Shown: positions 1-35,490 of the stretch, one piece after another
Layout of the letters: each line of letters opens with the position of its first letter
How positions within the stretch are numbered: the stretch's first letter is position 1
Assembly (NCBI GenBank): GCA_012295275.1
Contig: CM022676.1
Coordinates: 13,454,001-13,518,000 of the forward strand
Source: Chrysomallon squamiferum
Lineage: Eukaryota > Animalia > Mollusca
DNA length: 64,000 bases
Direction: 5' to 3'
Notes under the pieces: model-generated
Databases searched by the model: none
The model's input: only the letters and a program-made list of their open reading frames with translations
What the model was told of the DNA's origin: nothing
Program-made: the position numbers and the translations under genes

Positions 1-213
1 AGTCAGGACAGAGTGGAACTTGTGTGTGTAACACCACTTTTCTAGGAACACCTGCTGGCACAGTAAGCTGGATAACTCCTGATGGAACTGTCACACACAC
101 ACAAACTCTTGTCTTGAAATCTATTAACAGAAAGTACAACAATCAGAACTACACTTGTCAAGTGAGAAACTACGTGGAGACCAGAAACTTGACATTTACA
201 ACAAAACTAGCAT
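1..213 (+). CDS. Gene A Ig exon, module a (partial)
   Basis: GTCVCNTT...VSW...QNYTCQV; donor T|GTATGT after 213; near-identical to 29205-29468 (-). Confidence 0.88.
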
Positions 214-3200
214 GTATGTTTACAATATCAATGTACGAATTTTAGTAACATTTTTCTTATTTGTCTGTAAATCCTCTGTGATTCACAATTTTTGTAAATT
301 AGTTTTTACTGTTAAAAAATAGTAGTGACACAAACTAAAATTGTTCTTCATAAAATGAATTGTTTGTGAAATTTTGTAATTTTCTAATACAGATTAACTG
401 TTATTATCTACCATTTTATTCTGTCTTTTGTAAGATTAAAGATACAATATATTCTAATGATGTTCCAAATTTTAGTTGGTCCTGACAGAACTGATATAAA
501 TGGAAACCAAGATAATTTTGATGCTGATGGAATCAGAAATTTGACCTTGACCTGTAAAAGTACATCATCAAGTCCCAGTGTGAACTTTACTTGGAGAAAC
601 CTCACTAGTGGTCAGATTCTGATTTCAAATGAACCAATCAGAGAACAAGACGCTGGTGATGGAGGAAAGCTGTTTAGTCAGAATCTGGTTTTGGTTCCAC
701 AGTGGTATCAAGATGGAGATGAAATAGAATGTGAAATACAGAATTCTCAGATACCTGAACAAAACTCAAAAACAAAAACTACACTGAGTTTGATTTGTGA
801 GTAGAATGTAAAATATTATTTATAATAATAGTAATGATGATGAAAATAATAATTAGCAGGCTCTTAATATATACTAGATTTAGATTTGCTAAATTTTTGA
901 TTAACAAGACATATGACATTTATATGTGTAATGTTACTCTTCACTTACAACTGGGCTAAAAAATGGACTAATTAACAGCAATCATTATATTTTTAAAATA
1001 TCTATCAAACGGATCAAAAAGTTATGCAATAATTAAATATCTATCTGTGTATGTCAGATTTATGAAGTAAACTACATCTAAAATTTTATTTATTGTTCCA
1101 TATTTATAGAAAACCATTAATAAATATACTGAAAATGAATCAACATAACTAATAAAAGTTTGATGTTTATTATAACTCAACATAAAATTATTGCATTCAG
1201 AGAAGGATGAAAAAGGATGATGCCAGACTAGAAATTTCCCCAGTTGGAGAAACATGGATGTAGTGTTATTTATCGAGAAAATTTGCCCCTTCTTTGCTAT
1301 ATGATTTAACAGTGACATATATTTCTTTCAACCATTCCGATGAACTGACTAATACATATGAGAGCACAGACTCTTTTCTGAAAATTAAAATGTCATCAGA
1401 GAGAAGACATAGTTATTTATAATAAATCTACGGATTTAAATCCATTCTCTTTTCCATAATACAGTAGTTCAAATGAGTATAATTACTATGATAATTTTTC
1501 TTTCAGCTGCACCTAAGATCATTAACAAAACAGAGAACATTGTGGGAGCTGAGATAGGAAATCCTGTTGTATTACACAAATCTGTGTTTTGTAAACCAAG
1601 TTACACAAATTTTACCTGGAGTAAATTTGATGATCAAACTGATTTTAACAACACTCTACAAATACACAGTAAAACAGTAACAGATTCTGGTTACACATTT
1701 TCTCTCAATATCAGTAATTTTACTCAAGATGACATTGGAACGTACAAACTGACTGTCTGTAATGAAGTTGGATGTTCTCAGTTTTCTGTGAACCTAACTG
1801 CAGCAGGTCCACCTCTTCCTCCTAAAGAGTTCCAACAAGAAAGAGAATCAACATCAGACACAGTGTTCTTGTCCTGGCTACCTAACTACCCAGGTGGTAA
1901 TTTCAAACAAAGATTTATACTGCAGTACAAACCACAAAGTGACTCTAACTGGATTACTGCTTGGCAAAGTGAATGGTTTGATGACTCAATACAAGGACAC
2001 AAAGTACTTTTTAATATCACAGATCTTCAGTCTAAACAAGTTTATAATATTCGACTGTCAGCTCAAAGTAGCAGACTTTCAAATAACACCAGTAAATATG
2101 TTAGACTTGATGTCACAACACAGGGTAAGTAAATTGTATATTGTGAAAACATTTAAAATTAACATAAAGTTAAAATGAAATTGATGATTCAATCACTATC
2201 TAATTATTCCAAAAAATGGAGATCATTTCTTTGTGTGTATTTTTAAAAGGTTTCAGTTTTCAGTTAAAGCTATATTTTTAGAAAGACAAAATGTGGTGCA
2301 TATAAGAATTGTGGATTAATAAAACATAATTAAGAAATCTTTGCATTTGTATTTACAGTTATTGTTTATGATGTTAAATAATTACAATTTTAGAAAAACC
2401 GAGTGGTTCAGGTTCTCTGCTTGGTGCAGCTGTAGGAGGAGCTGTTGGTTCTGTGACTGTCATTGTTGTCATAGTGATACTTGTTCTTTTACTTAGAAGA
2501 CATCTGCCATTTGTTTTCTCAAGTAAAATGGGTAATATACTGTTAAGACTACAACTGACTCAATCTCAGTGTCTGCTCTTGAAAATTTGTCGAACATGCT
2601 GTGAAGTCTACCACTATCATTTTGTTTTTTCAAGAAATGCCATGTGTTAACTCTAGGATGATAATTATCCAAACAAATTTGTTTTCAATTTCTTTTATTA
2701 TTCCTTTTTGTTTTCATCTAATATGTAATACAGATTACTGTCTTTCGTTATTTGTAGATCTATTAGGAGTGTGAAATATTGTTTATTAGTTTCTTAGTAA
2801 AAGAAGAACATTTTTGATTAAGTGATTTTAATAGAATATCCTTTTCTTCATAGATTTATAATAATGAAACAACCTATGCAACTCAAACAATAAGCAGCTT
2901 CTTCTGTTCTTAAAATAAATAATTTCCTTGCTAAAATAGTATTTTATTATCTTTAATTAAAGGTAAGGATGCAGAAAGTGGAAAGTAAGTTAACTTATTA
3001 GCTTCTATTCTGGCTTAATCTTTATTGCTTTGTGTAGTTGTTTCATTCTTTTTCTCTCTTTTTGTTTTTTTCTCAAGTCTTTCAAATACCATTTAAGTCA
3101 TACCTTCGTGTGCATTATTTCTTCATGTTTTTCTTATAACAAGAATATCTACATATGTCATGGTGTGCTTATTACTCCTAAATTCAGATAGAAATCAAGC

Positions 3201-6200
3201 AAATATTTCATTTTGTTTCATTGTGTATGTTTGTGTGTAAACAGCTGATCTTCAGCTTAAATAACTTAAATAACTCTTAATTGTGTTTTACTTGTTTGTG
3301 TTTAAAAGAGGCAAAAAGGAATTACCTTAATTCAGATAGTATTTGTAATTGCTACAATTTATTAGTTTAGAAAAGTTAAATTTAATTTGTTAATTTCTCT
3401 TGTTTTACGTTTTGTTGCTTTATTGGTAGAAGATTAAGAATAGTAAAAAAGAAAAGTTTCATAATTACCATTTTGTTATAAAATTGGCTAAAAAAGTGAT
3501 TTTGATAAATTTTACATAGGAATCCAAAGTATAATGTCATAGTGGTTTAACATTTTTATTGTTTCTACATCTAATTAAGAAGCATACAGCTACTAGACTA
3601 GTTACATACAATTACTAATCTTAAAAAGAGACATCAATATTTTTATAAAAAAGATAAAATAATTTTAAAATGGAATGAATTACTATACTGTTCTTCTTGA
3701 ATCTGCATGTAATAAAATGAATAGTCTAAATGTGATATAGGCAGCTTAATTTATTCATTAGTAATGGGTTTTTTTTTTTTTTTTAAATATATATACATAC
3801 AAAAATAAAATCTATTCCAATCTGCCAGGAATTGTTTCTATTTTAGGCATCCATAAATCTGTTTTTGTTATGCTTGTTTTTAGTATTTTGCCCTGAATTT
3901 TAAAGAATTGTTTGAAAACGTAGCTTTTGATACTGAAATAACTGTCTGGGTTAGCCTTCAGTTTGCCTCTTTAATAAAACTATTTGTATCTTTCCACCAC
4001 TCTGTCTTTTCTGAGACATACACAAATGTATCAGTATGATAAACTCTGATGTTAAATATAATAATAATTGTTTCCACACATAATCCTAAATATACATATT
4101 TGAAGCTAAATTTTAACACTTTTAATTTTTGCTTTTCAGTCCAAGGAATATACCTGCACATGAAATGCCTGGTATGAGTTACTTTTTAATAATCATTTTA
4201 CTCTTTTATTGTTGTTGTTTTTTTATAGTTTATACTTTTCCCATCATGAAATAATATCTTTTCAGTTTAACTAGGGTTTAACTTTTATTATTATTATTTT
4301 ATTAACTTTTTTCATTTCCTTTTTTGTTTGTTTATTGGGTTTTTTCTTTCTTTTTTTCCTTTACCAATGTTACTGTTTTAAATAGTATAACAACAGATAT
4401 GGGAAGAGATGTATATTTGGACTGTATCTGTTTATTTTATTTTATTTTTTTTTATTTTTAAAGAAGAAAGAACAAAAGCGTCAGAAAAAAACATACATTA
4501 AGTTTGTTATTCACTGCTTTGTGATCTTTTACAGTTTTGGAGGACAGTCAATTATATAATCTGTTTAATAACAGTTCCACATCATTAAAACTGCCTGGTA
4601 TGCCTTGTAACAAAACAATATATATATATATATATGTATTTATTTATTTATTTGTTATTTGATTTATATAACATCTATAAAGTAGTTCTAAATTTTATTA
4701 CTACATAACTTATAAAAATAATCTGTCACATTTTTAACCATTTTATTATTAATACTGTTTTATTTTAGTGTTGGAAGATAATGATTTGTATTATACCTCT
4801 AGTAATGATGGTGTAAAGAATGTACAGCTGCCAGGTGACTGATTGCAAATCTTTTCGTCTTTTTCTTTCTATTTAAGAAAAGAAAGTAAAGAGTGTGTTA
4901 TTTCATATCTTAATCAGTTTGAATAATATTTTATATATTAAACTGTCATCTTCAGATGATCTAGTTTTAGAAAAATTTTATTTTCTTTGGTAATATAAAC
5001 ATTTTAAGACTAAATAATTATTTAGAAACAAAATTACAGAATTATAACATGTTATTTTGTCTTTATATGAAAAAACAAATAACTATGGTCATATTAGGCC
5101 AGATACAAATTTAATGGGTTGCAGGATTAATAGTTTATTAAAGCCTTTTACATTCTTTCCTGTTTATGGGAAAGTGAATTTGTAAATTACTTGTTACGCA
5201 GCAATTTCGTCTTTTTTCTATTTCACATTTTGTTTGTTTCATTAAGTTCTAGAGGATAATGTGATCTATCACACAAATAATACTGCAGCTGCAAAGAAGG
5301 TACAAATACCAGGTGAGTGTAATTATATTGCTATTTTACTGCCATTATTAAGTGCTGTTTTAAATCTTGAAAATTAAGTCTTACATGTCAGCCACTCTAA
5401 GGACAATGCCCCACTTTTTAATGACAGAGGATTTTATCAAACCTTATTTAATACAAAAATACTACATTCTGATCACTGAGTATTCACTTGTTAATTTACA
5501 TACTGTCGTTGACTGAACGGCAAGCAAACAGAGTTTGATTGTAACAAATATAATTTTGTGTATCAGCTCTGAACCATCAAAATACTTTCACAATTTTATG
5601 TCATTTAAATAATAACCGAATAGTTGGTTTATATTTTTGAATATCTGATAAAGATGTGAGTGTTGATAACTAAGAGATAAATGAATGCATAAATGTACAT
5701 GTTGTTAAGTAGCTATGCTAGGTAAAAAGTGGCAAAATTTGAATACCAGACTTATTTTTGGTTTTTGACACAAGCATTTAGAAAACATACATAAAAATGT
5801 AATTTATTCTGTGCGATTTTATAGAAACAGATATCAGTTTGAATTATTTGACCTGGGTTGGAGATATTCATGAAATGTGGTAATATAATTTAAACAAATA
5901 AAATAATAATAAAATAAAAAAAATAAAACAACATTTTTTACTATAACAAATGGGCATCATTTCCATTGTTTCAATTCTGTAACATAAATATTAATGATTT
6001 TTCATTTTCGCCACATGCGCCTTTAATTAGAATAATAATAGTAATGCTTTACTATTGTTACTTTTGTTCTACATTTATTTGTTTTAATGATCTAAATTAA
6101 TAGCATTGAAGGATGTACATATATTTTTAGCTTTTAATGATGCCATTTTCAGTTTTCTCTTCTTTTAGTAATGTAATTAATGTAATGAGAATAAAATTTA

Positions 6201-7681
6201 CAATAATAGAAATTGTGTGTGTGCCTGTATGTGTGCTCAACCTGAGTTATGTTCAAGTGGGGAAAATGTGATGGAAAATCCAGAAAGCCAATATTCAGTT
6301 GTTATTAAAGCCACATGTAATCAGAGTGATTACACCGAAAAAAATAAAAAAATAAAATTACTTTGCTATGAATACAGAACACATTTAACTGTAACACATA
6401 AAAGGCAGGTGTTAATTCATTTATTTCACACAATATTTGTTATTTATGCAAAACAACAACAACAACAACACTACAGTAACTTAATAACAAAATGCCATCT
6501 CATTACATGTATGTTTCATATTTGGAATTTAGTATGAAGAATAATTTCTGTAATTTTCTGAGATTATTAGCATCTGAAGAACATATGTGGATCAAAATGT
6601 ATCTCTTGTACTGTAACATGTATGTTGTTCTAAGTGCATGGATTTCAGATATGTAGTCCAAAATTCCCATAAAAGAGTTAAAGTAAAATCACAAATAATA
6701 CTTTAAAAATGCCTTGATATTATAAAGAAAAATTAATAAACGTACTCTATTTCTAATCAATAAATATATATATATTTTATTTAGAAAGTGAAGTTTTACC
6801 AGGAATAAATACAGTTAAATCTTGAACTCAAACTTCCATTTATTAATATCCATACAAGTTTACAAATATTAATATTTTTCAAATTACTTTCTCAATTATA
6901 ATTTCACTTTTAAAATGATTTTTGTTTTTCTTCCTATTGCAGATGATAAAAGACCACTGCATCAGTCTTCAAGGGGTAAATATATTTGAGAATTTATCAT
7001 TTTGAATTTATAAATAACCAATAACAATTAAAAAAAAATTTAAATTTAAAATAAAAGAAAGAAAATCTTATTACTCAATATTGATTAGTGCTATTCTCTT
7101 TCACATTTGCTAAAATGAAATTTTAAAATTGAAATATATTTTCCATTGCAGTTATATAATTTTTTGGGGGATTTATGAAATCAACTCATCAACTGTTGTC
7201 TAAGAAGCAGACATGTCCCTTTATAATTTTTTGTGTTTTAATTCAGGTGATACTTACGAAAATGTTGGAATTGGAAAAGTAGATAATCAATATGCTAATG
7301 CTGCTTACAGTGGAAATGATGATCCTACCTGTGAAAATGTCAAGGTAATTGTATTGAATGTTGTGTTAATGTAATTATATGAAGCCTGCAAAAGACATGG
7401 TATAAAGGAAATAAAAATAGACAAACGATTAATTGAAAAGATACTGTTAATAGCAGGGAGGCATATGTATACTTTTTAAGCTGACAACAGCTCAATTATT
7501 TCAGGGACCAAAGCATGGACGAAATAAAGATGGGTTGCTGTATGTTGGTATAGATTTCTCTAACACACAACCAAGTAAACAAGTTCACAAAACACAGGAC
7601 AAAGTGGAGTACATCTCCATTGACTGGAACAAGAAAGCAGAACCACTTCCTGATAATAAAGAAACTGAACCAAAATATTAA
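1..7681 (+). CDS. Gene A: IgSF (Ig-Ig-Ig-FN3-TM) receptor with ITIM-bearing cytoplasmic tail, 5' end outside window; exons <1-213, 476-796, 1507-2124, 2394-2531, 2963-2984, 4140-4171, 4535-4597, 4769-4834, 5247-5312, 6943-6975, 7247-7344, 7505-7681
   Basis: All listed exons have AG/GT boundaries and join in one continuous frame to TAA at 7679-7681. Ig motifs (C...W...YxC), FN3 motif (LSW...F.LQYK...L....Y..RL.A), hydrophobic TM followed by RR, tail with LLYVGI and VEYISI. Confidence 0.88.
476..796 (+). CDS. Gene A Ig (C2-set-like) exon, module b
   Basis: tttag| acceptor, LTLTC...FTW...DGDEIECE, T|GTGAGT donor; 321 nt, same length as paralogue 28563-28883. Confidence 0.9.
1507..2124 (+). CDS. 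Gene A Ig+FN3 exon, module g
   Basis: tttcag| acceptor, G|GTAAGT donor; Ig (FTW...DIGTYKLTVCNEVG) followed by FN3 (GPPLPP...LSW.P...QRFILQYK). Confidence 0.92.
2394..2531 (+). CDS. Gene A transmembrane exon (TM type 1)
   Basis: EKPSGSGSLLGAAVGGAVGSVTVIVVIVILVLLLRRHLPFVFSSKM; paralogue at 57049-57186 (-). Confidence 0.88.
4535..5312 (+). CDS. Gene A three tandemly duplicated cytoplasmic micro-exons (4535-4597, 4769-4834, 5247-5312), each VLED-x3-Y...P
   Basis: VLEDSQLYNLFNNSSTSLKLP / VLEDNDLYYTSSNDGVKNVQLP / VLEDNVIYHTNNTAAAKKVQIP; all phase 1-1 with AG/GT. Confidence 0.82.
6235..6340 (+). pseudogene. Decayed cytoplasmic exon of gene A containing SQYSVV (ITIM consensus), splice sites lost
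   Basis: AQPE...ENPESQYSVVIK is homologous to the intact exon at 13757-13891 (-), but the acceptor and donor regions are missing here. Confidence 0.7.
7247..7344 (+). CDS. Gene A cytoplasmic exon with YENV / YANA motifs
   Basis: GDTYENVGIGKVDNQYANAAYSGNDDPTCENVK; attcag| and |GTAATT; paralogue 12862-12959 (-). Confidence 0.83.
7505..7681 (+). CDS. Gene A terminal exon with two ITIMs
   Basis: GPKHGRNKDGLLYVGIDFSNTQPSKQVHKTQDKVEYISIDWNKKAEPLPDNKETEPKY*; tttcag| acceptor, phase 0 matches the preceding exon; AATAAA near 7740. Confidence 0.87.
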   Translation, partial: GPKHGRNKDGLLYVGIDFSNTQPSKQVHKTQDKVEYISIDWNKKAEPLPDNKETEPKY

Positions 7682-10681
7682 TGAACAAAATGTTATATTC
7701 ATATGGAACCAAACCCCTATAAAAACTACAACAAAATGAAATAAAAATCCACTATTTTATATATTTGTACTTTTATTTACTTTTCAAAATATCATCAGCT
7801 ATTTAATGTTTGGTATTTTTTCTTTATCTGCCATAAACAAAAGTGTTCATGTATTATACCATACAGAGAAATTTGTAGATAAAATCTGAAGAGATCATTA
7901 GCATTCTTCCAGAATTATAATACAGTGACTATGGAATTCCAAGAAAAGAAATAATGCTTAGCAAGAATTATTAATTTTTGAACAAATATGGACCATGTCT
8001 AAAATGTATTGATTATAATTTTTTAATGCTTTAGTTACAGTTGTGTTCTAATACTGTTTTAGAGCTTTCCTTCATGTATAAACAATTTTAGGGTTGTTAT
8101 TGTGAACTGTGTCACAAAATGATTTCAAACTGGAGAATACTTATTTTAAATTGAAGAAAAAGTACCTCAAAAATGAATTCTTTTTTCCCCTATAAATAAG
8201 AAGTGAACTATTAAGAATGAATAGAGAAATCTTAGTTTTATATTGTTAAGAATAAAATATATTTTATAACTAAAATAAAAATAATTATTTTCTATTTTAT
8301 GTATTTTTTTTAAAATATACAAAATACTTGTATTTCTTGTAAATATATATTTTAATGTGTGTGTGTGTGTCTGTGTGAGTTCCTTAAATGTATGTTTGCA
8401 GAAATATGTGTTAAATGGAATAAGTACATTTTGATACAGGTGTAAATATGTTTCATTAAGAGATCTATAGTTTGAATGTAAGTATGAATATATTCATACA
8501 AAATCTAATTTAAGGTCAGACAAAATCAATTTTGTATAATTTTGTATGCTATTTTATTTTATTTTTAAAACGGAGTTAGAAAACTAGACAATATAAATTC
8601 TGACAAGGATGTTTATCATGTTCATTTAGTATTTTGCTTTTCTCTTCCATACAAAAGATTTTACTTAAATGTATTATTAGAGGCAATCTAATTCAGGCTT
8701 CAAGTATTTGTAGTTTTTATTTCCTTCTTAATTCGGTGTGCCTAAAAGAATTGACACCTGGACAGGATTCTAAAAATGACACATCAATAAACAAATGTAA
8801 ACTTAACAATGTTGCCTGTTTCTCATCCAGATTTTTTGTTACTTTCATATTTTGTGAATTACATTGTGTGTCTAATTGTTGAATAAATTGACTTTGTTTC
8901 ATAACCAATTTATTGATTATTTTACAAAATCTTTACCTATGGTCCTAATATGTACTAATTAACGAAAATTACTGGGATAACATTACAAGTCTAATACCAA
9001 ATTATTTAGAGTTTTTTGTTCTCTTTGATATATAAAATTTAATACATCTGTTTCAATCAGGATAGTTTTATTATTTTCATAGAGCTCACACTGTGGGAAT
9101 ATTGTTAAGTATTTTTAAATATTAGCTGATGATACTGCAAATATTTATTTTTATTCATAATATTAAATTGAGAGTGTAAAGTTAATATTGTTTATTAATT
9201 TTCAATATTAAAAAACAATGAAATAAGTGCTGCTTTTAACAAATCCTGATTTTTGCTATATTGATTTTTGTATCACATTGTATAGTTTTATGGATATTTG
9301 TAAAATGTTAGCATTTGCATTGTTGTATTCGTTTTAATCAATTGCTTCTACTTATTAATATATTTTTATTGTTGTTGTTGTTGTTGTAAATAGACAAAAT
9401 ATTCCATCATAATTTCTTAAACATTCCATGAAATGATTTTCTATTGACAGATTTTATTTTGAGTGTCTGAGATTTTGCATCATTTATAAAGGATAAATAT
9501 TTTATTTAAGAAATATTTCAAAAATTAAATGATGTTTGATATGAGATACGTTTTTCATCATGTTTATTTGGAGTAAGTTGATGGATTCAGTGCTAATGGA
9601 TTTTTATTGTTGGCTGTTTAAGTCAGTATCCAGCTTGTATAAACAAAACTGTTATATTAAATTGCCAACACGTCCGATAGGTATGCATACATTATATTCA
9701 TACATACATATATTATATATACATTATATACATATATACATGCATTATTATACATATATTATATACATATATACATGCATTATATACATACATACGTACA
9801 ATATACAGACATATATACATACATTTATTTGCTATTTATAAATACAAAATGATATCAAATGTTAAATTCTCAAATATAGTTACTACTGGAAGACTGGTGC
9901 AATGATTTTTCATCACCTCAATAGGGGAAGAAACACAACCAAATATTTTAAAAGTAAAATAAATTATAACTGAGAAAGTAATTTGAAAAATATTATTATT
10001 TGTATGGATATTAATAAAGGGATAGTTGTGTTCAAGATTCATCAGAATTCTCTTTCTAACCAAAAATATATGTTTATTAATTAACAAGAGTACAAGTTGT
10101 TTATTAATTTTGCTTTGTATATAAAACACCTTTCAAAGTATTATTTGAGATTTTATTTAAACTTTTTTTAATGTGAATTTTGGTCTGAATGTTTTTAAAC
10201 CATACACTTAAAACAACATTTGACATATTCAAGTACAAAGAGATACATCTGTTAATAATCTCTGAAAATTACAAAATTATTCTTCCTAATAAATCCCAAG
10301 AATGAAATGCAGGACAAGGAATGACCGAATTAGTTTTAAAAAGATGTCAAACTGGAAAACGTTGTCTTTCTGTTAGTAACTTAGGACTGTACCAATATGT
10401 TACATCCTCTACGTCAGACTGATGTGCTTGCTTTCGTGAATCTTTTTTACTTGGTAAATGTAAAACTATCATTCTAAGATGCAGTTTTAATCATAACTGG
10501 TGCATCACTACAATCTTGTATTAGAGAAGTTTTTGTAAAAAAGTAAATTAAAATATCAAAAGAGTCAAAGTTAAACTGTTACAGATGTCTTAATTAAAGG
10601 TATGTCTTATAAAAGATGATATTACATTTCTCACATAAACCTTTTGAATAATTTGAATAAATTGGAGTTAAAATCTTTGAG

Positions 10682-10714
<33 letters not shown>

Positions 10715-10872
10715 TTATTTTTATATTTTATTATTTTTTTTTTGTTTTTTAGGAAAATTAAATTTCACTTTATTGTTTCATGCTATATCATGGTCCATAC
10801 TTCCAAACACTAATCATATCTGTTTTTTTGTATACAAAATAAACTAATAAAAACGTAACAATTGTATAGTCT

Positions 10873-10930
<58 letters not shown>

Positions 10931-13915
10931 TTCACAATCCTAATGGGTAAAAAATGTTATATTACAGCTGATTCACCTTTTTTTGTTTTCTTTTTTTTGT
11001 TTATCGTTTGCATTAACCAAAGCCTATCCTTTCTTTATCTCTTTCTTCTCATTTTTCATTTATTGATCTGCAACATCAAAAATCTGATGAGGCGGCATTT
11101 AAAAAAAAAAAACTTAAGGAGTTCATTAATTTTGTTTTAAAATGAAATTAACTGATTAGTTAAATGCGCTTTAGTGCAGAAATAACAAGAATTATGTTAA
11201 ATGAATTAATAAAGATCCTGAAAGTAACATGATAAAAGAAAATAACATGACTTGTATGACTTTCAGTTAAATATTTTATTTACTCATATCAAAATAATGT
11301 TTTGCTTTTATCATACCTCTGTCGTTTTCTTTGTTTTCAGTTTAATTGCTCTGTTTGGTCTTAATAACAACTGAATATTGGTTTTCTGAGTTTTCAGTAA
11401 CAGATTCCTCACTTGTACCTGGCTCAGGTTCGGCAATATTTGTTTCTTCAAAGAATGTGAAACAAATTTACGCTTATGTCATCTTATGTTGTATTTGTAT
11501 TTTATTACATTAGTTACATTAATAGAAGAGGAACAAAATTAAAAAATATAGAATCAAAAACTGACGATATGTGTACATCATTCAATGCTATTAATTTAGA
11601 TCACCAATAGTAATAAAATATAACAGAAAATTTAAACAAAATAAAAATATAATGAAACACAAAAATAAACAGCAGCAGTAATATCAACTGTAGAAATAGA
11701 ACAAATGTAACAATAGTAAAGCATTACTTTTATTATTCTAATTAAAGGGGCATGTAGTGAAAAATCATTTTTTATTTATGTTACAGAATTGAAAGATTTG
11801 AAATAATGTCCTTTTATTACATCATAAAAATAGTTTTGGTTTATTATTTTACGACAAATTTTTATTTTTACTTTTGTCTTTTTTTTAAATACCGTGCTAT
11901 TCAAATTGCTGGGCTTCATCATAAAACAAAAAAATTAATCTTTACTTAAATACTTCAAAAGAAAGTAATGTATATATATATATATGACATTTTATTTTTT
12001 ATTTAAAAAAAAGAAAAAAGACAACAACAAAAACACAGGAAAGTTATATAAAGGTCATATGAAAAGAAGAGATAATGTTTCCAAGATTTTCTTTCAGTCA
12101 TTTTAAAGTGTTTGTTTCTAAATATATACATTTCTAATTTGGAAAAGAAAAAAGACATGACACATTTATATGAAAAAGTAAATTTTGTCACTAGCATACC
12201 CCGTTAACAACATATAAATTTAGGCATTCATTAACTATTAGTTATTAATGGTCACATTTTCTTTAACACATATTCACAAATATAAACCAGATACTGGGTT
12301 ATTACTTAAATGACATGAAATTGTTGAAATGTTTTAATCTATTCAGTTTGTGATACATAAAACAATATTTATTATAATCAAACAGTTTTTTTGCTATTCA
12401 GTCATTCACATTAGGTATATTAACAACTAAACAATCAGATCAGAATGTAATATTTCTGTATTAAAGTCCGTAGAGTGGCTGAAATGTAAGACAATATTTT
12501 CAAGAATACAACGTTACACAAGATTGAAAAATAACACTAAATTATGTTAATAATGAATGTAACATAATAATATATTTACACTTATCTAGTTTTTGCCTCT
12601 TTTTGCAGCTGCAGCATTAGTTGTATGATAGATCATATTATCCATATTACCCATCTTAATCTCGGCCACACTTTGCTCCCTGAAATAACAGAGGCATAAA
12701 ATGAAACAACCAGTTGATGGTGTCAGCTTAAAACGTATGCATCTGCCTTCCTGTTATCAACAGTAACTGTACTTTTTTTCTTCTTCTATTTTTAATGTCT
12801 TTATATCATGTTTTTTTCAGGCTTCTTATACTTACGTTAAAATAACAGTCAATAAAATTACCGTAACATTTTCACAGGCAGGATCATCATTTCCACTGTA
12901 AGCAGCATTAACATATATATTATATTCTTTTCCAATTCCAACATTTTCGTAACTATCACCTAAATTAAAACACGTCTTAGGCAACAGTTGATGAGTTGGT
13001 TTCATAATTCCCCCACCCAAAAAACAATTACGTAACTGTAATGAAATGGAAAGATTATGTTTCAATTTTAAAATTTCACTTGACCAAATGTGAAAAAGAA
13101 TATCACTAATTAGAATAGAGTCATTATAAGACTTTTTTTTTAATTTTTAAATTTTTAATTATTTGCTATTGATAAATTCAAAATGATACCAGATGTTAAA
13201 TTCTCAAATATATTTACTCCTTGAAGACTGATGCAGTGGTCTTTTATCATCTGCAATATGGGAACAAAAACAAAAACATTTTAAAAGTGAAATAAATTAA
13301 AACTGAGAAAGTAACTTGAACAAATATTATTACCTGTAAAGTTGTATGGATATTAAATGGAAAATAGAGTTCAAGATTCACCTGTATTCATTCCTTGTAT
13401 AAATTCACTTTCTAATTATAAATTTATATTTTTTACTTACAAATAGAACATGTGTTTATTAATTTTTCTTTGCATACTAAGCACTTTTCAAAGTATTATA
13501 TGAAATTTTATTTAAACCTTTTTTTTTGGGGGGGGAATTTTGGTCTGAATGTTTGAAATCCAAATAAGCAGTTCAGTTATCTTTTAAGTTACTTATTTTA
13601 GTGGGGTTTTTTGTGAAGAAATAAAAAATATGATGTTAAATAAATGAATGAAAATATTGAGAGGCACATATGAAATAACATAACATCTGGCTGTTATGGT
13701 TTACAGTTAAATGTTTTATTTACTCATATCGAAGTAATTTTTTGTTTTTAACATACCTCTGTCTTTTTCTTTCTTGTCAGTAATATCACTCTGTTTACAT
13801 CTGTTCTTAACAACAACTGAATATTGGCTTTCTGGATTTTCCATCACATTTTTCTCACTTGTAACTGTCTCAGGTTGAGCAGTATTTGTTTCTTCAAAAA
13901 ATATGAATGAATGTA

Positions 13916-14704
13916 CAGTGATACTTAAGTTACGAGTGCACCAGCTTATGAGTTTTCTGAGTTACGAGCAGTCGCAGAGGTGATTTTTTGCTTTGAGTTG
14001 TGAGCCAAAATCTGAATTACGAGTGAGTTTCAGATACACCGCCGCTAGTTGGCGCAATGAACAACATAACATCGGCCCAGCATCCCGTGCCTCGCTCACT
14101 TGATTTATGTCGTTACCTCGCCATTGAAGCACCTCTATTATGCTTGTGTTTTATGCAGTATTTTGCCAAATTTCTGTTTTCTGACCATGAATCCTAAGAA
14201 AGTGAATGCAAAGGACATTGCTGAGAAGAAGAAATGGATGATGTCCATTGAATTAAAGCATGAAATAAACGAAAAACATGAGCGAGGTGTGCATGCAGTC
14301 AAAATGGCTAGGCAATACGAGCGTAGTACTACTATGATACATACCATACTAAAACAGAAGGAGTTGATAAAAGCTACAACTCCTGCTAAAGGTGTTAAAA
14401 TAATTTTAAAGCATCAGACCTATGTCATGAAAAGACTGAAAAACCCTAACCATGTACACTTTACAAAATCAATCTATTTCTTTACAGTCTCTTTTATTTT
14501 GTTTTTATACAATATGTGTCGTTTATACATGCATTTTTCTTATTTAAAAATATGTTACAAAAAAATGGAGTAGTTTTGGGGAGACTGGAACAGATTAATG
14601 GTATTTCAATAATTTGATTTTGGAAAATTGATTTGCTATATGAGCAAACTGAGTTACTAGCTGGGTCACAGAACAAATTAAACTCATAAGTCAAGGTACC
14701 ACTG
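13916..14704 (+). mobile_element. Internally deleted Tigger/pogo-family (Tc1/mariner superfamily) DNA transposon
   Basis: TA target duplications flank imperfect TIRs CAGTGATACTTAAGTTACGAG / CTCATAAGTCAAGGTACCACTG; ORF 14100-14573 includes a CENP-B-type N-terminal HTH-like fragment (MSIELKHEINEKHERGV...MARQYERS...IHTILKQK). Confidence 0.88.
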
Positions 14705-17392
14705 TATATATATTCTGTCATTTTAAATTTTGTTTTTATTTTATTAAATTAATTACATTGACAAAAGAGGAGAAAAATGAAAAATGACATCATTATAAAC
14801 TGAAAATATATGTACATCCTTCAATGCTATTAATATAGATCATTAACAGAACAAAAAATAAATAACAAAATATTTTAAAAAACTAATAACAGTGAAACTA
14901 AGAAAAGTAAGCAGCAATAACAGTTTTACATGTAGCACAAAAGTAACAATAGTAAAGTATTCCTTTTATTATTCTGATTGAGGGGGTGTGCGGTGAAAAT
15001 GAAAAATCAGTATTCTTTATGTTGCAGAATTGAAATGATTGAAATAATCCACATTTGTTATATTAAGAAACTAGTACTAGTTACTGTTTCTTTTTTTGTG
15101 ACAAATAGTTAATTTTATATTTGTTTTTTTTTAAATTTCATGAACATCTCCAACAGAAACCAATATATATAATTCAAACTGATGTTTGTCTACAAAATCA
15201 CGGAGAGAAATTAGTCTTCATGTAAATACTTCCAAAGAAATATTTAAAAGTTAATATGTTTTTCAAGTTGTGTAAAGTTTATATGAAATGAACAATGACT
15301 TTTTCCAAGACTTTCTTTTTGTCATTTTGTAGTGTTTGTTTCTAAATAAATATACATTTCAAATTTGGAATCTAGCACAAATAGTTATCATGCAGCATCT
15401 TCCCAAAATGTTAGCATAGTGTGAAAAATGATACATCTAAAAAAGAAAATTAAGTAAATGAAGCTTTATGAACCATATTTCCATTTATTATGGCTATAAT
15501 GATGATGTTCTTCTTCATTATTATGTAATCTGTTTATATGCATTTTCTTTACCAAACAAAACCCTGAAACATTTATCAGAAAAAGTACATGGTTAATGTA
15601 TGTAAATGGTTCTGTCAAAAATTAAAAACAGGTTTCTTATACAAATGTTGTCAGTTTTTGCCTAACATATCCCCTTAACAACATATACATTTAAGCATTC
15701 ATTAACTATTAGTTATCAACTCACATCTTTATCAGATACTCAAAAATATCAACCAGTTAGTGGATTACTGTTTAAATGATATAAGATTGTGAAAGTGTTT
15801 TGATCTATTTAGATCTGAAACATAAAATTATATTTGTTATAATCAAACACTGTTTGCTTGCCGTTCAGTCAACGACAGTATGTAAATTAACAAGTGAATA
15901 CTCAATGATGTAGTATTTTTGTATTAAATAAGGTTTTATAAAATCCTCTGTCATTAATAAGTGGGGCATTGTCCTTAGAGTGGCTGACATGTAAGCTTAA
16001 TTTTCAAGATTTAAAACAGCACTTAATAATGGCAGTAAAATAGCAATATAATTACACTCACCTGGTATTTGTACCTTCTTTGCAGCTGCAGCATTATCTG
16101 TGTGATAGATCACATTATCCTCTAAAACTTAATGAAAGAAACAAACAAAATGTGAAATAGAAAAAAAGAAGAAATATTTCTTTTGGAGGGACTCAGAATA
16201 TTTATAACCTACAGTTTATCATATACAATACTTAGGACACAGCTAATAAAAGAAGAAACGTGCTGTGTAACGAGCAGTTTATATATTCACCTTCCCATAA
16301 ACAGGAAAGAATGCAACACGTCTTTAATAAACTATCTGTGGAGCACAGAGAGGATAAATCCTGCAACCCGTTACATCTGTATCTGGTCTAAATATTACAA
16401 TTTAATTATAAACCACTTCTTATCATTAACATGTTGTTATGTGTCCAGTTTTTTCATATTAACAGAAAATGACATGCTACAATCTTTAAATTTGTTTCTA
16501 AATAATTATTTAGTCTGAAAATGCTTATATTACCAAAGAAAATAATTTTTTACTAAAACTAGATCTTTTGAAGATAAAAGTTTAATATATAAAATATTAT
16601 TCAAACTGATTAAGATATGAAATAACACACTCTTTACTTTCTTTTCTTAAATAGAATGTCAACTGTGAAAAGATTTGAAAAAGATCACCTGGCAACTGTA
16701 CATTCTTTACACCATTATTGATACGTTATGTTGCAGAACTGTTATTAGACAATAATATGTTTGAATGGCCTCCAAACTGTAAAAAAGATCTTCAAGTAGT
16801 GAATCACAAAGTGAATGATTTTTCTTCTGCTTCTTTTTATTTTTCTTCAAAAATTACTTATGACAAATGCAGTCGAAAAATATATTTTTTTTCCTTACTT
16901 ATTTCAATCACATTAATATAAGTAAGATATATATAAGTTAAAAAATAAATAAAATAAGAATAATAATAAAAACAAATAAAAACAAATATAAATAAAAAGA
17001 AAGAAGTTCAATTAACACTTTTAGAACTGAAAACGCAAGATTTTATGTTAAGTATAAACCATGCAGGTAATTTGCTTGGACAAAAAAGCAAAATTAAGTG
17101 TATTCAAATGTGAAATAAAATATGGAGTAATATGCCTCCAAATAAGTATATTTATTACTATGTGTGGAAATCTTATTACTGCATTTAACATAGTGTTTAT
17201 TATATTGATACATTTGTGTATGTCTCAGAAAAGATAGGGTGGTGGAAAGATACAATTAGTTTGATTAAAGAGGCAAATTGAAGGCTAACATTTCTTGACA
17301 TCATCCTTATTCGACCCTCCCTGAAAAAAAGAGAAGAATTAAAATCGATCTTGATTTTGCTGATATATGTACAGTTTAAATATATGAACAGA

Positions 17393-17423
<31 letters not shown>

Positions 17424-19125
17424 TACAAAAGTAATTTTAATTATTGTGGTTTGGAAAATGATTTAACTGATTTTCATCATATCTCAAAAATATTTAATTA
17501 CATTTACATTAAAAAAGTTTTATTTTTTAAAACACATGTATATACATAAAATGCAAGTACTTTGTAGTAGTTGAGTAATAATAAACATGGATCTTTTCTT
17601 AGTTTTGTCGAACCATTTTCCAAGTAAATATTATTTAGCAGAACTTAACAATGTGATCACTGACTTAATGCTTCTGTGTTCTTAGTTATTTTTACACCAT
17701 TAATACATATACATTTTTCAAACTGTTAATTACTGTGCTAATTATAAATTGCTGAGATCCAACTACTAAAAAATAAATTAAAAAATATGAAAATATCATA
17801 CATGTACAAATACCAAAGCCAATCTGAAATCAAAGGCTTGTTTCTCATTATTGCTGAAAAAATATAAAATCTTGACAGACATGTACAGACAGATGTACTA
17901 TTATTTTTCTTGTAACATGGATAACAAATGAAATTTTAAACCAGTAAACAAGTGTTTCTTAAATATTAATATTTACTCCAAAGATGCAAATTGGTCTAAT
18001 TAACAGCATGAGACAAAGACATATTAAATGCCTGAGTGCCAGAGGTGAATTCACAGATTATAAATAAAATGTTCTGATGTTTATACTCCATGTTTGACCC
18101 CTCGATCTCTGGCAACATATAAACTGACTAACTTGTATATTTATTAATGGTTTTCTGTTAATATGGAACAACAAATAAAATTTTAGATGTAGTTTACTTC
18201 ATCCAGGAACTGATATACTTTTTACTTTTTCATAGTTATTAGTCCTTATATCAACTTTTAGCCCAGTTTTAAGGAAAGAGTAAAATAATACTTATAACTG
18301 TGTAAAGAGGAAATGAAATTTCAAAACTGAGTTTATCAAATATCGTTAAAAAGGTATATCCATATATATACCAGATAAATACAGTTAAATATTACTTTCT
18401 TTACAATTAGGATTATTTAAAATTATATACTCTTTAAAAATATGTTCAACTAAATTATACAATACATTTTAGAACTGAGTAATAATCTATGAACCTGCCT
18501 AAACTTTTGCAACATGATACTGAATAGATGTTAACTTAGGTATTATATCACAGGCAATGCAAAAAAAATAAAAAAATAAAATAAAACTGAGCAAAATTCA
18601 ATATAAAATAAAATAACCGTCACACACATATTATAAGTTTATATATATATAAATATCAAGACATTTTATTTTCTATCAGTGTACTCAACATTTCTTAGAA
18701 CAAGGTTTGCCAATATTAACTGGAACGAACAGTGTCAAAATACAAGAACTGTGTTTCATTAAAGTATTTAGTGTTATATTTTCAGATTACTTTGGATCGT
18801 TTTTGTGGAGTGTGAAGTTATTTGTAGCCTGACACATAAATGTCTGACTGTTGTCTGTGTAGGACAGATTTTTGAACAGCCAGTAGGAGTTTGTGTGTGT
18901 GGAATCTTTCACTCCGTTATTAAACCAGACAGTCACAAATGGGACACTGCACGTCAGGTTTCTAATCTGACATTCTAACAACACAGCGAATGTTGAGTGT
19001 GTCTCCTTCATAAATCATTTGTCCTGTCTCGTATCCTCTTATTTCTGAAAACACAAATTTTACTAGTCAAAAATTACATTTAAAATTGTTATTATCTGTT
19101 TAATATCACATGAATAGTTTAAAAA

Positions 19126-19219
<94 letters not shown>

Positions 19220-20280
19220 TGGCTTGCATTTCAGTGCCAGAAATGTTGTTCACAAATCAGAATGTGAATCCTAAAGCAAACTGTATCCAAAACAGAATAA
19301 AAGTAAATACTCAAAATCTATTCATTATCATTACTGTGGTTGTTATTGTTAGAGTTATCGTTATTATTATTATAAAATAAACTATTTTTACAATGTACTA
19401 ACAAATCAAACTCAGTTTAGTTTTACTGCTTATCCAGCTTTCTGTGCCAGCAGGTGTTCCTAGAAAAGTGGTGTTACACACACAAGTTCCACTCTGTCCT
19501 GACTCTATGTAAGTATTTCGACACTCACCACTTGTAAAAGGAAAGTTTGGCGGATCTGTAAGTGAAAACTTCAATATTAAAAAAATATGTTAAATTTAAT
19601 AATTACCTGACTGTTGATTCTATCTGATTAACAAAAAAGTATGTATTTATGTATGTATTTAGATATATATATATATTAAACAATGACACAGATTACACTC
19701 CCTAAAGTCGGCATCAATGCATATCAAAACAAGGCCTGAGTTTCAAGTTCTCTCCCGTGACCTCCGTGTTCATCAAACGGAACACCCCGCTTATCGCTTC
19801 CCGAACTAGAACTTCAACTCACTTCATTTCTATCCCAAAGCCCATGATAGTTAACTGCGGTTGTCGGTTAAATCCACGGAATAGAAAAAAATAAAAATAA
19901 AAATAAAAAAGATTACAACGAAGGTATTCATTGGACAAATTTCCAAGCTGTGTTAATTTGTCACACAAAACAAGCCACATTAATGTAACTATTAAAATGT
20001 GTAAACAAACTTTAGAAATTCGTTATCGCCTATTTTGCTGTAATGGTCAGATGAACTTTAATTATTTGCATACATCGGTAGTTAAAGGCAGGTTATTTAC
20101 TGGTTTTAATTATTAATACATACTTATTTAATATTTGTTTCTATATATATATATATTATTCCGTTAATAAAATCTTTATTTAGTACACGCAATAGAAATG
20201 CATCTAAAGAAATACAGTTTCTTAGATAACCGGGTTTTACGTTAAACATAGACGATATTATCTATATTCGACACAAATAA

Positions 20281-20321
<41 letters not shown>

Positions 20322-20706
20322 ATAGTAGTAGTAGTAGTAGTAGTAGATGTATCAATAATAATAAGAAAAAGAAAAAAGAAGAAAAACTTTCTGGAGAAAT
20401 GTTGGAATTTTGCATCACTTTCAGCACTGATTGAATGTTTATTTCTTTTTAGCAGAAAGACACCACTAGTGTTGTTTTAAGTGAAAGTGGTCTTTATTAT
20501 AATTATTATTATTTCATGAAAAATTAACATATATTATTTTATTATTAGCTGTGTTATTCTGTTTTTAAAGTTACACAATGGTTAACTCAAAGTTTTATTG
20601 AAATTAACAATGGCAGAAGAAAACTAATTCGGTTTTAAATATCTACATTTTACATTATTATCAAACACAGAATACAGTTATTTCATTCGTCATGTTTTAT
20701 TCATGA

Positions 20707-20771
<65 letters not shown>

Positions 20772-21492
20772 AGATCTTAAATAATGGAAAGTAGAACTGT
20801 TTCATTTTGTAGACGAAAGTGAAGTTAGACCTGTGACTGGATATCTGTGATAATTATTTGAATTTTTCTCATGGTTTGATATAAAAACTGTAAGGTTGGA
20901 TTATTACCGAAGTTTTGAAAATGTTTTCTTTTCTTTTATTTAACTTAATATATAGGTACTAATGCATATTTTCCTTGTTAAGCCAGCAGATCCAGTCTAA
21001 TTATTCATCCACATTAGTTCTCAGCAATTTTCAACAATAACATATTAAAACAACACATCTAGAATAATAGCAGTACAAAATTTAGCTTGATTGTATCTTA
21101 CATTGAAACAAACATATATGATTATGTACTGTATAATTGTTCCCTACATCTTGTTTCTCTAAGTTAATTAAATCCTGACTTTAGATACAGTCTTAATGCT
21201 CTAATAAATAAATAAATAAATAACAACAACAACAGCAACAACAACAACAACAATAATAATAATAATAATAAATTAAAAAAGAAAATAGGCAAAAACAAAA
21301 GAAAACGAGTACTCTTTAGCAATTAACAGATTCTTAATTCACCCTATTAGCCTTGTAATTCTGCATTCGACGTTTCGAATAAATAAAAAAAGAAACGGAG
21401 AAATGTGAAACTGTTTTCTATAATTAATCTAATAATAATTAGAATAAATGTATGTATATATATATATATTTATATTTATCAGTTAAATCTGA

Positions 21493-21664
21493 TAAATTAA
21501 ACTCAAAGTTGTATTACTATATATTATATAATCTGCCTCTGAAATTTTATATATATATAATTTCACACTGTTTAGCTGAAGCTGGGTCTTCATAGTGCTA
21601 TTCATTCACTTGTAATAGAGGCAGATTATATAATATACAGTGATACAACTTTAAGTTAAATTTT
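21493..21664. repeat. Local inverted repeat, ~45 bp arms, ~75 bp spacer
   Basis: AAACTCAAAGTTGTATTACTATATATTATATAATCTGCCTCT (to 21540) vs AGAGGCAGATTATATAATATACAGTGATACAACTTTAAGTT (from 21617). Confidence 0.85.
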
Positions 21665-21873
21665 AACACAAAACCAGCCCTAATCAGCACAGAGATTGAA
21701 TGAACGTTTTCACTGCATCCTTTTTATCGGTAATTTCTAACATGTTTGTTTTAATGTATCAACAAATAGATGAAAAATATATAAATAAGTAAATAAATAA
21801 ATAATAGATCAACAAATAGATAAAAAATATATAAATAAGTAAATACATAAATAATAGATTGAAGGAAACTTAC

Positions 21874-21928
21874 CTGTGCTGTATCTAACAATTACGAGAG
21901 AAACAAGTAAATATCGCAACAGCGCCAT
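21874..21928 (-). pseudogene. Signal-peptide exon of gene B (MALLRYLLVSLVIVRYST-G)
   Basis: 55 nt from ATG to G|GTAAGT, paralogous to 33131-33185 and 42885-42939. Confidence 0.85.
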
Positions 21929-22015
21929 TGTGTATGCTGTGACTAAACTTGTTTCCTCCGAGTACACGAGCTGTACTTTATCTAGGTTAAGTTATTATGT
22001 CACATTTCTATGGCG
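21929..22015 (-). promoter_or_regulatory. Conserved 5' cassette upstream of the gene B ATG (shared with C and D)
   Basis: ~85 bp conserved block with AGATAA and an ETS-like purine run just upstream of the ATG; function is inferred. Confidence 0.5.
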
Positions 22016-23578: not shown

Positions 23579-23716
23579 TTACACTGTATTTTCATATACA
23601 TTGCCTAGAAAGAAAAAAAAGAAAGAAATAAATAAAGAAAAAAAAAGAAAAAATACTTGAAATAACTACAGAAACTCTAGAAGCCATGATTTCTAACACT
23701 TTTTTCAAAAATATGC

Positions 23717-23750
<34 letters not shown>

Positions 23751-26389: not shown

Positions 26390-26451
<62 letters not shown>

Positions 26452-26991
26452 ATATATATATCTATCGACACAATCGCATGCACATTTTAGTAAAGTCATA
26501 ATATAAACATTGACATTGGCTAATTCTCATAGGTATGGAAACAATAACAAAATCAGTTGCATTTGCTAACAAAGGTGACATGAAAAAAGTGTAAATGAAG
26601 TTACCTGTAACTATGACACTGGCAGATCCTGACATTGAAGTGTTAAAAGAAGTTTTTGAAGTTGCTGAACACGTGTACTCTCCTTGGTCTGACTGTTGAA
26701 ATGAGGAGATTTGAAACAGAGAACTGTCAGTGAGGTGTTTTGTACCAGTTCGCCATTCAAATACAACACTGTCTGGATTGCTGTCAGCTGTACAGCGTAG
26801 TATCACAAGTTTTCCCAGTTCAACTCTGATGTGACTCTCTGATAAAATTCTCACTCTGGGAACATCTACTCAGTTGTGAATAAAGGCAAAGTAAAAACGA
26901 AATTAAGATTCATATATTTGTATACATACTCTAAACATAACATTACATAACTAAAGTGAGAGTATTTATTTATTTGTTTGTTTTATTATTC

Positions 26992-27050
<59 letters not shown>

Positions 27051-27843
27051 TTGTTGTAAACTTAATTTTGATTCCTTTCTTTATAACGTGATGTAATGAA
27101 AATAATATAAATATGAATTTCCTTTTTTTTTCTGAGAGGCTACACTAATTTAAACAGTAAACACTCAGAAATTCTCTTGATGTATTAAAATCACATGAAA
27201 AAAAAAAGAGAAAAGAAAATAGCTCATAATCGCATGAACATCTTTTAAATTTCAAATAACAAGAATATCTTAAAATCATCCTTCAAAAACAACATTTTAA
27301 TACTCACAGTAAACATTTAGTGTTTTATTTTCAGATGACTTTGGATCATTTTTGTGGAGTGTGAAGTTATTTGTAGCCTGACACATAAATGTCTGTCTGT
27401 TGTCTGTGTAGGACAGATTTTTGAACAGCCAGTAGGAGTTTGTGTGAGTGGAATCTTTCACTCCGTTTTTAAACCAGACAATCACAGCTGGAGGATTTCC
27501 TCTGTCAGACACTGCACAAGTCAGCTTTCTACTCTGACCTTCTAACCACGGAAAACTCAAACTTGGAGCCAGGTCTGGAGATGATGGTGGATCTAAATAA
27601 AACATGATAAAGAATTTGTTAAAATGTCTACTTAAAAACCTTAAGAATAATAAAAAATAAATGGAAAAAAACTAAGAAAAAATCACTACCAAATTATTAA
27701 ACTGTTCTAATCATTATTTTTGTTATCTTTCTGTGTTTTTACTGTTGCTTTCGTCAGTGTTACTGTTATTAATATTATTATCATCATAATCATTATCATC
27801 ATCATCAGTATAATTGTCATTACAATTATCATCATTATCATCA

Positions 27844-27890
<47 letters not shown>

Positions 27891-28453
27891 GTTATTATTG
27901 TTAAATACTTACAGTACACAGTGAGTGTTTCAGTGTCTATGAGATTATATCTGTGAGTCTGGTGAACTGCACTGCACTGACAAGTCTTAGAGTTGAGATT
28001 TCTTGTAACTGTAAAAGACAAATCTACAAAAACACTGTTTTCATCTCTCTCAGATGAAGTTTTCCTGTGATCTGTGTCACAAGACAGACTTACTGATGTC
28101 ACTAGATGTTTACCACCTGACACAACACAGCGAATGTTCAGTGTGTCTCCTTCATAAATCACTTGTCCTGTCTTGTATCCTCTTATTTCTGGAGGATCCA
28201 CAGGTGGATCTGAAAACAAAATTGTTATTATCTGTTTTGTTAATTTTCACGATGTTTTTCACAGGACAGTCAACACTGTGTACACATTCCAGGGTGTATG
28301 TGATCACATCTCACACAGCTTATCCTTATTCTTAATTTCAATGAATGAGTTAAATACATCTAGATTGTGTTTGAGTCCGATCTATGCTAAACAAATCATA
28401 TTATGGCACCTGAACCTAATTCTATCCAAAACAAGTAAATATTCAAAATCAGT

Positions 28454-28507
<54 letters not shown>

Positions 28508-32707: not shown

Positions 32708-32756
<49 letters not shown>

Positions 32757-35431: not shown

Positions 35432-35490
<59 letters not shown>

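Follow-up and report, generated by a model that had tools for sequence, protein, structure and literature searches.

We analysed a 64,000-nucleotide (nt) stretch of the Chrysomallon squamiferum genome (contig CM022676.1, positions 13,454,001 to 13,518,000; hereafter the window), which carries a cluster of genes and pseudogenes, designated A to E, for receptors with immunoglobulin (Ig), fibronectin type III (FN3) and transmembrane (TM) segments. Genes A and E share closely similar Ig+FN3 and TM exons and end in cytoplasmic tails of opposite kinds, A with two inhibitory motifs of the immunoreceptor tyrosine-based type (ITIMs) and E with two of the corresponding activation motifs (ITAMs). We conclude, with a probability of about 0.6, that A and E are inhibitory- and activating-type members of a clustered and likely multi-copy Ig–FN3–TM family, that their tails predate the split from Gigantopelta aegis, and that later gene conversion at the exon level likely made their membrane-proximal exons match again.

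The shared exons of the two genes lie ~56 kb apart on opposite strands, with the related B, C and D between them in one cluster. All A and E exons inside the window read in frame with canonical splice sites, and the junctions are all in phase 1 (Table 1). Pfam assigns an I-set Ig domain and an fn3 domain to the shared Ig+FN3 exon of both genes. Over this exon, A and E differ at 43 nt in an alignment of 618 and at 27 residues in one of 205 (87% identity), and there is a single 24-nt (8-residue) gap, in A. Synonymous divergence (dS) is 0.114 and nonsynonymous divergence (dN) is 0.063, giving a dN/dS of 0.55. No part of the exon had a clear nonsynonymous excess, the most divergent 25-codon block having nonsynonymous and synonymous proportions (pN and pS) of 0.15 and 0.22. 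The TM cores are one residue apart (L/F) and contain a 74-nt identical run (A 2412–2485, E 57162–57089). We weighed this run as a demonstration of recent conversion and discarded it (23 synonymous sites, P = 0.075). The 8 residues missing from A are carried by all 11 other aligned rows and form part of a long β-hairpin in the predicted model of E (mean predicted local distance difference test score, pLDDT, 84). The predicted A model is poor around the deletion, with a mean pLDDT of 75 and values of 36–47 at residues 41–60, versus 74–76 in E. In a fold search, the best matches were titin and NCAM Ig–FN3 tandems, generic at 17–22% identity, with the solved NCAM tandems 17–21% identical to the query.

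The tails of A and E belong to opposite motif classes, each of which is conserved in G. aegis. The A tail is spliced in frame from eight exons and holds two ITIMs (LLYVGI and VEYISI), three NxxY and two YxN motifs and no ITAM, while that of E is spliced in frame from two exons and holds two ITAMs (YxxL-x8-YxxI/L), each followed by YENL, and no ITIM. The A micro-exons between 2963 and 7344 encode LEDNxxY repeats and YENV; their joints are matched in paralogous RNA contigs, with no joint listed for 4535–4597. BLASTP found no similarity between the two tails (expect value 1.5), and Pfam returned no family for the last exon of A. A search with that exon retrieved one Haliotis protein alone among four candidates, and the G. 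aegis ITIM member was obtained from cluster members. In the 168 proteins collected, the A C-terminal module matches six, from G. aegis, Haliotis (three), Mya and Argopecten, and the E tail matches four, two of these weakly. Judged by these sequences, the A C-terminal module predates even the split from G. aegis. A further tail exon of a paralogous transcript corresponds to 6234–6340 (+); in A its 5' end is apparently gone, and the A model passes over it without loss of frame. The joints of the paralogous transcript there run from 5307 to 6234 and from 6303 to 6939.

The identity breakpoint between A and E was located by alignment, and similarity stops inside the TM exon. The alignable stretches, in A coordinates, are 1452–2133 and 2359–2512, and divergence begins at ~2501, just past an RR pair. 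The TM exon of A begins at 2394, and its acceptor has apparently shifted 6 nt downstream of the E-type position. The FN3–TM intron of A aligns with that of E at a score of 28, a value reached by 56 of 100 shuffles (mean 28.1); for the post-TM intron the score is 25 and the shuffle mean 23.8 (37 of 100). On the upstream side, ~55 nt of intron beside the acceptor of the shared exon can also be aligned, and one ~150-nt patch is kept in the intron before that exon (score 99, reached by 0 of 40 shuffles). By contrast, introns between the exons common to A and C align at 77%, and those between the exons common to E and C at 84%, with comparable exon dS values (0.02–0.10). An earlier note, made from the letters of this DNA alone, had counted about 27 differing residues in 206, one 8-residue indel and a single difference in the TM core, and our comparison agrees. 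Its assignment of an ITIM/NxxY tail to A and a double-ITAM tail to E is confirmed by the in-frame gene models. It had also described complete divergence immediately after the TM exon; the tails are indeed unrelated, but the break already lies within the exon.

In E, the intron downstream of the shared exon holds what is left of an older FN3 exon, its 3' half, with one stop and no frameshift. The DNA of this remnant is 64–66% identical to A and E, whereas the identity between A and E over the same part is 87%. At the protein level, the remnant is 46% identical to A and to E and 48–49% identical to G. aegis P0160 (59 residues, expect value 4e-12). Among 13 informative sites, at which A and E agree against the outgroup majority and the remnant matches one of the two, it sides with the outgroup at 7. 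Most simply, the older exon of E was probably overwritten, out of register, by a family-type copy.

The window genes were compared with G. aegis proteins, among them XP_041372798.1 (ITIM tail) and XP_041379249.1 and XP_041378983.1 (ITAM tails), all of which rest on automatic annotation. This species is a vent-dwelling snail that harbours symbiotic bacteria. Its P0160 joins this ectodomain to an A-type tail (expect value 4e-43; 63% identity over the last 99 residues), and its P0004 and P0005 join it to an E-type tail (46% over 67 residues and 49% over 68). Tail comparisons between classes gave expect values of 0.06 or worse. Since G. aegis carries the ectodomain with both tails, the tail classes are older than the species split. 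The tails group by class across both species, and the ectodomains of A and E group with each other. The Ig+FN3 part of A and E is 55–62% identical to all six G. aegis sequences; three of the six have an annotated tail, and for P0001 and P0002 the class was read from the TM segment. Support for the A+E clade is 100/99 in a 21-row tree and 100/100 in a 19-row tree, the fragment P0011 being omitted from both. On the latter, which leaves out the long-branch Haliotis proteins P0168 and P0038, the approximately unbiased (AU) test rejects a grouping of the A ectodomain with the ITIM members of G. aegis (p = 1e-50) and of the E ectodomain with its ITAM members (p = 3e-54).

In both species the length of the TM exon past RR goes with the tail class: 10 residues in A and P0160, 8 in E and, with exon ends placed by alignment, ~7–8 in P0004 and P0005. 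Within G. aegis, ITIM and ITAM members are 66–73% identical over Ig+FN3 and are less well matched than A and E. Gene E has the domain order of P0005 and P0003, which are 89, 74, 62, 73, 61 and 72% identical to each other domain by domain, a list without the 'Ig(2)' row, a non-equivalent domain match. These values suggest that patchy homogenisation may have occurred in G. aegis too. Of 825 candidates of 360–2000 residues, five matched, all from G. aegis at 57–59% identity, and six of 69 near-length candidates, all ENA proteins, matched at 57–61%. More distant relatives occur in Haliotis, scallops, Mya, Solemya and Ruditapes. Distant Ig–FN3–TM relatives, from Solemya, Pecten, Haliotis, Argopecten and Mya, are likewise split into ITAM-tailed (P0088, P0095, P0103 and P0117) and A-type-tailed (P0102, P0125 and P0145) proteins, and Haliotis cracherodii carries one protein of either kind, both on a contig for which the same length is listed. 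Two scans of metagenome contigs for relatives confirmed 0 of 94 and 0 of 293 pattern matches.

Four RNA runs of one study, in the form of contigs, were compared with gene A, and stretches free of RNA were not read as unexpressed. The sequencing runs have just 0.15–0.21 of their words in common, and no habitat was read from them. The TM exon is joined to A-type tail exons through the ITIM exon in three of the four RNA runs (X1, X3 and X4), on the evidence of joints that have the same depth. Four contigs in X1 and four in X4 depart from the TM exon at 2501, with the first 8 bases beyond matching E, and each of these two runs contains both ITIM-tailed family transcripts and ones whose TM end is E-like. 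A contig of X3 is identical to A over 7246–7406 (161 nt) and includes the splice from 6974 to 7246. Upstream, the joint from 213 to 476 (GT..AG) was present in all three RNA runs compared there, and no RNA joint was found for the A junctions 796 to 1507 and 2124 to 2394 among the 15 of 17 joints shown. The RNA comparison covered gene A; the predicted splicing of the E tail follows from the DNA and the G. aegis models. A further run, X5, is of no recorded kind and is DNA-like in that it covers introns. It has five post-TM intron bins at depths of 55–95, a 190-nt contig piece over A 1742–1931 at a depth of 1677, and the ITIM exon at 522 at one site. The ratios are ~18–31-fold for the shared exon and ~5–10-fold for the ITIM exon; depth of this kind is no copy number, and it hints that the shared exon may be present in tens of copies.

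Exon-level conversion fits these data better than one swap in the post-TM intron, because the identity is confined to exons, the break falls inside the TM exon and E retains an FN3 remnant. The earlier note had offered both explanations. Its gene conversion of the ectodomain is well supported by the old tail classes and the A+E ectodomain clade, whereas its tail swap is not favoured, as the FN3–TM intron is equally unalignable and similarity ends before the post-TM intron begins. Its view of A and E as the clearest true pair was too strong, given an exon apparently present in tens of copies, and the pairing is not exclusive, as A is without four E-type Ig exons and its upstream Ig exons match those of C, an ITAM gene with a different TM. 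In the history that we propose, a family-type Ig+FN3 exon would have been copied into the ITAM gene E together with ~55 nt of upstream and 9 nt of downstream intron, leaving the 3' half of the old FN3 exon behind. The TM core would have been matched in a separate event, and A would afterwards have lost four Ig exons and 8 residues of the extended β-hairpin.

Several observations weigh against this account of re-matched inhibitory and activating members. Gene A lacks four Ig exons that E has, and the pieces of E-type intron that it keeps imply that they were deleted. The matched part is the membrane-proximal Ig+FN3 and TM core only, and the N-termini of both genes, which likely bind the ligand, lie beyond the window edges. 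A dS of 0.11 in the shared exon means that the conversion was not very recent, and on synonymous sites by themselves the identity of the TM core falls short of significance. Three placements of A+E among the G. aegis groups all escape rejection (p = 0.25, 0.42 and 0.43), so the trees do not single out a donor class, a direction or a number of events. The ITIM class of G. aegis P0003, which has no annotated tail, rests on its 95% Ig+FN3 identity to P0160. The FN3 remnant has the A/E residue at 6 of the 13 informative sites and could be an inserted fragment of a divergent paralogue. Finally, the RNA contigs that join TM to ITIM are paralogues rather than A itself (4–9 of 97 nt differ where listed), and in X1 a loose RNA end at 796, past the second Ig exon of A in the window (Ig4), enters a C/E-type Ig exon instead of the next exon of A.

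The losses in A also suit another explanation, in which birth-and-death evolution and the shuffling of exons within a tandem array produced the shared exons as a side effect, with A shortened and possibly decaying and with A and E not acting as a matched pair. Four Ig exons, 8 residues and apparently the acceptor of one tail exon are gone from A, its predicted Ig model is weak near the deletion, the joint from 796 to 1507 is absent from the RNA joints shown, B is broken and D apparently so, and C mixes exons common to A, E and D. We find this explanation unlikely, as every exon of A and E in the window has stayed in frame with a dN/dS below one (0.55), the X3 contig reproduces the A tail with 0 differences and a splice, and both tail classes persist on the same ectodomain type in two species. 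A single recombination in the post-TM intron, which would have moved one tail class onto the other ectodomain and been followed by duplication and intron decay, would have stayed in frame owing to the phase-1 junctions. It also agrees with the TM cores of A and E, which are nearer to the ITAM-type than to the ITIM-type TM of G. aegis, and with the trees that set A+E beside either G. aegis class without being rejected. It appears improbable nonetheless, because the intron before the TM exon is unalignable too, the TM-exon end is class-specific in both species and E holds an older FN3 half-exon.

The proteins might instead be adhesion or neural receptors of the nephrin/SYG-2 or NCAM kind, with tyrosine motifs serving cytoskeletal adaptors or endocytosis. 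The database names of their relatives (titin-, Dscam-, syg-2-, L1- and hemicentin-like) and the titin and NCAM tandems found by the fold search speak for such a role, as does YxN, a Grb2-type consensus. Those names, however, are generic and conflict among near-identical proteins, and immune receptor families typically show clustering, pseudogenes and mixed exons. We regard this role as very improbable. In oysters, Ig receptors that carry these motifs bind microbes, and their signalling runs through Syk or SHIP2 (PMC6994640, PMC11841013; here and below, sources are cited for the portions of their text available to us). That the shared exons, or the joining of TM to tail, are an assembly chimera of repeated exons is scarcely credible. 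The exon is highly repeated, the evidence includes no long reads and the E tail was outside the read comparison; yet A and E are separated by 43 nt and a 24-nt gap and have unrelated introns, both architectures exist in G. aegis, and RNA contigs splice TM to the ITIM tail.

Conversion-matched pairs of inhibitory and activating receptors are a hallmark of vertebrate innate immunity; beside the Xenopus ceacam genes, Siglec-5/14, CD300A/C and LILR are further examples. The A/E case resembles such receptors in its layout, without demonstrated sequence homology. As in the paired ceacam genes, similar ectodomains in one cluster carry ITIM or ITAM tails, identity ascribed to conversion is confined to exons with diverged flanking introns, and the two genes have opposite orientations (PMC5112662). 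It departs from them in that the match shown covers the membrane-proximal Ig+FN3 and TM core, not an N-terminal ligand-binding domain, and in that dS is 0.11, not near zero, in a family of apparently tens of copies. The model proposed for the ceacam pairs is that conversion keeps inhibitory and activating ectodomains alike towards microbes (PMC5112662).

Among molluscs, oyster CgNCAM1 is reported to bind microbes and to interact with CgSHIP2; by its description it stands beside gene A, with Ig domains, one FN3, a TM and two ITIMs, and the main text of that paper, as available, contains neither 'ITAM' nor 'paired' (PMC11841013). NCAM proper has two FN3 domains before the membrane (PMC11841013), whereas A and E have a single one before TM. 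In oyster CgIgR, the receptor's own ITAM recruits CgSyk and promotes phagocytosis (PMC6994640). It is described with five Ig domains, a TM, one ITAM and no FN3, against two ITAMs and an FN3 beside five or more Ig domains in E, and the word 'ITIM' is absent from the available main text (PMC6994640). By analogy, E may work like CgIgR though its architecture differs. The Alr genes of Hydractinia are likewise an invertebrate cluster of Ig/FN3-like TM proteins, some with ITAM and some with ITIM tails; they form a cnidarian allorecognition locus, and the available text describes no matched ITIM/ITAM ectodomain pairs and no cross-species test (10.1101/2022.03.04.482883). The Fester/FcoR genes of Botryllus share with the present family the clustering of Ig superfamily genes, the mixing of ectodomains and intracellular parts by intergenic recombination and the presence of ITIM and hemITAM tails. 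They differ in being chordate two-gene receptor/co-receptor pairs, in having hemITAMs, not full tandem ITAMs, and in switching motifs by allele and by splicing within one gene (PMC12582321). The G. aegis receptors are of the same family, with the same domain order and the two tail classes.

By analogy with CgIgR and CgNCAM1, clustering by a ligand would lead to tyrosine phosphorylation of the tails. E-type members would then recruit a Syk/Shark kinase through their tandem ITAMs and promote phagocytosis, as CgIgR does, and A-type members would recruit SHIP or SHP phosphatases through their two ITIMs and damp the response, in the manner suggested by CgNCAM1. If conversion acts as proposed for the ceacam pairs, it would keep the outer parts alike, and a microbe binding the inhibitory member would also meet the activating one. 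The shared ligand would be the weakest link of a paired-receptor interpretation, because only the proximal module is shown to be common to A and E. What the sequences point to is a real paired-receptor-like family in a mollusc, whose functional likeness to paired receptors is suggested by comparison. A stronger proposal, which we put forward tentatively and with the odds somewhat against it, is that this is a true mollusc paired-receptor system built independently of that of vertebrates, in which a gastropod/bivalve ITIM module and a tandem-ITAM tail sit on ectodomains matched in each lineage by exon-level conversion and both members read the same microbial ligand. If so, the balance of a vent snail between tolerating and engulfing bacteria, symbionts included, could be set by it.

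The principle of such pairs is already established, and what appears new is a mollusc example backed by evidence from two species that ectodomains were re-matched. The literature searched, in which subscription-journal mollusc immunology is thinly covered, yielded no account of a paired ITIM/ITAM family in molluscs (for broad queries, among the 20 top-ranked papers), a weak negative, and described mollusc ITAM and ITIM Ig receptors singly only. Two species in which one ectodomain family bears both tail classes, together with a remnant that probably marks the replacement of an exon, raise the questions of whether the host–microbe arms race proposed for vertebrate paired receptors also shaped mollusc receptors, and of whether such receptors have a part in handling bacteria in symbiont-bearing snails.

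Table 1. Receptor family features in the window, by position
Feature	Positions	Strand	Remarks
Gene A Ig exon (Ig3), truncated by window start	1-213	+	matches gene C 29417-29203
Gene A Ig exon (Ig4), C2-set	476-796	+	dS 0.10 to gene C copy
Gene A shared Ig+FN3 exon	1507-2124	+	AG/GT ends, phase 1; Pfam
Gene A TM exon	2394-2531	+	2412-2485 identical to E
Gene A tail micro-exons	2963-2984, 4140-4171, 4535-4597, 4769-4834	+	in-frame model
Gene A tail micro-exons (continued)	5247-5312, 6943-6975, 7247-7344	+	in-frame model
Gene A last exon, two ITIMs and stop codon	7505-7681	+	in-frame model; conserved across relatives
Pseudogene B	9825-21930	-	leader, fused C/E-type Ig fragments, E-type introns, two broken A-type tails
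Gene C	23579-33185	-	leader; Ig3 and Ig4 as in A; Ig5 and Ig6 as in E
Gene D	35249-42941	-	Ig-FN3-TM and single-ITAM tail in common with C
Gene E tail exons	56601-56711, 56393-56511	-	one ITAM and YENL apiece
Gene E TM exon	57049-57186	-	in-frame gene model
Remnant, 3' half of older FN3 exon	58212-58391	-	in E intron, 13 nt past donor
Gene E shared Ig+FN3 exon	58405-59046	-	AG/GT ends, phase 1; Pfam
Gene E upstream Ig exons	63788-64000 (truncated by window end), 63174-63458	-	Pfam
Gene E upstream Ig exons (continued)	62058-62324, 61448-61744	-	Pfam

The other family members in the window also combine exons of different origin. In pseudogene B, E-type upstream DNA is joined to an A-type tail, of which two copies stand in tandem, and the ITIM exon is interrupted by a stop; its Ig exons are fused from the start of Ig3 to the end of Ig4 and from the start of Ig5 to Ig6. 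The upstream Ig exons of gene C have a dS of 0.10 to A and 0.02–0.09 to E (a dN/dS value for Ig3 of A and C was out of frame and was discarded), and its downstream part consists of a different Ig–FN3–TM and a single-ITAM tail, which splices in frame in C and D alike. Gene C is another candidate activating partner of A, to judge from its exons. In gene D, the first Ig exon is apparently frameshifted (41680–42000, -) and a later Ig piece (40143–40367, -) ends in a stop, and D may be a pseudogene despite its intact tail. Another D Ig exon (38575–38889, -) is 57–62% identical to G. aegis P0003 and P0005, while the equivalent exons of C and E are 35–40% identical.

Upstream of the D leader, a lone copy of the C/D-type last exon (43890–43930, -) may mark where one more gene, since lost, came to its end. 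On the other strand, 45812–48160 (+) holds another Ig-like piece together with a TM exon followed by a long tail, which had no match to A–E in a self-comparison. The large intron of E contains degenerate reading frames (59475–60363, +) that, we presume, resemble the end of a non-long-terminal-repeat retroelement. Two related fragments (14070–14710 and 44869–45408), 78% identical over 551 nt, resemble what we take to be a DNA transposon of the Tigger/CENP-B type.

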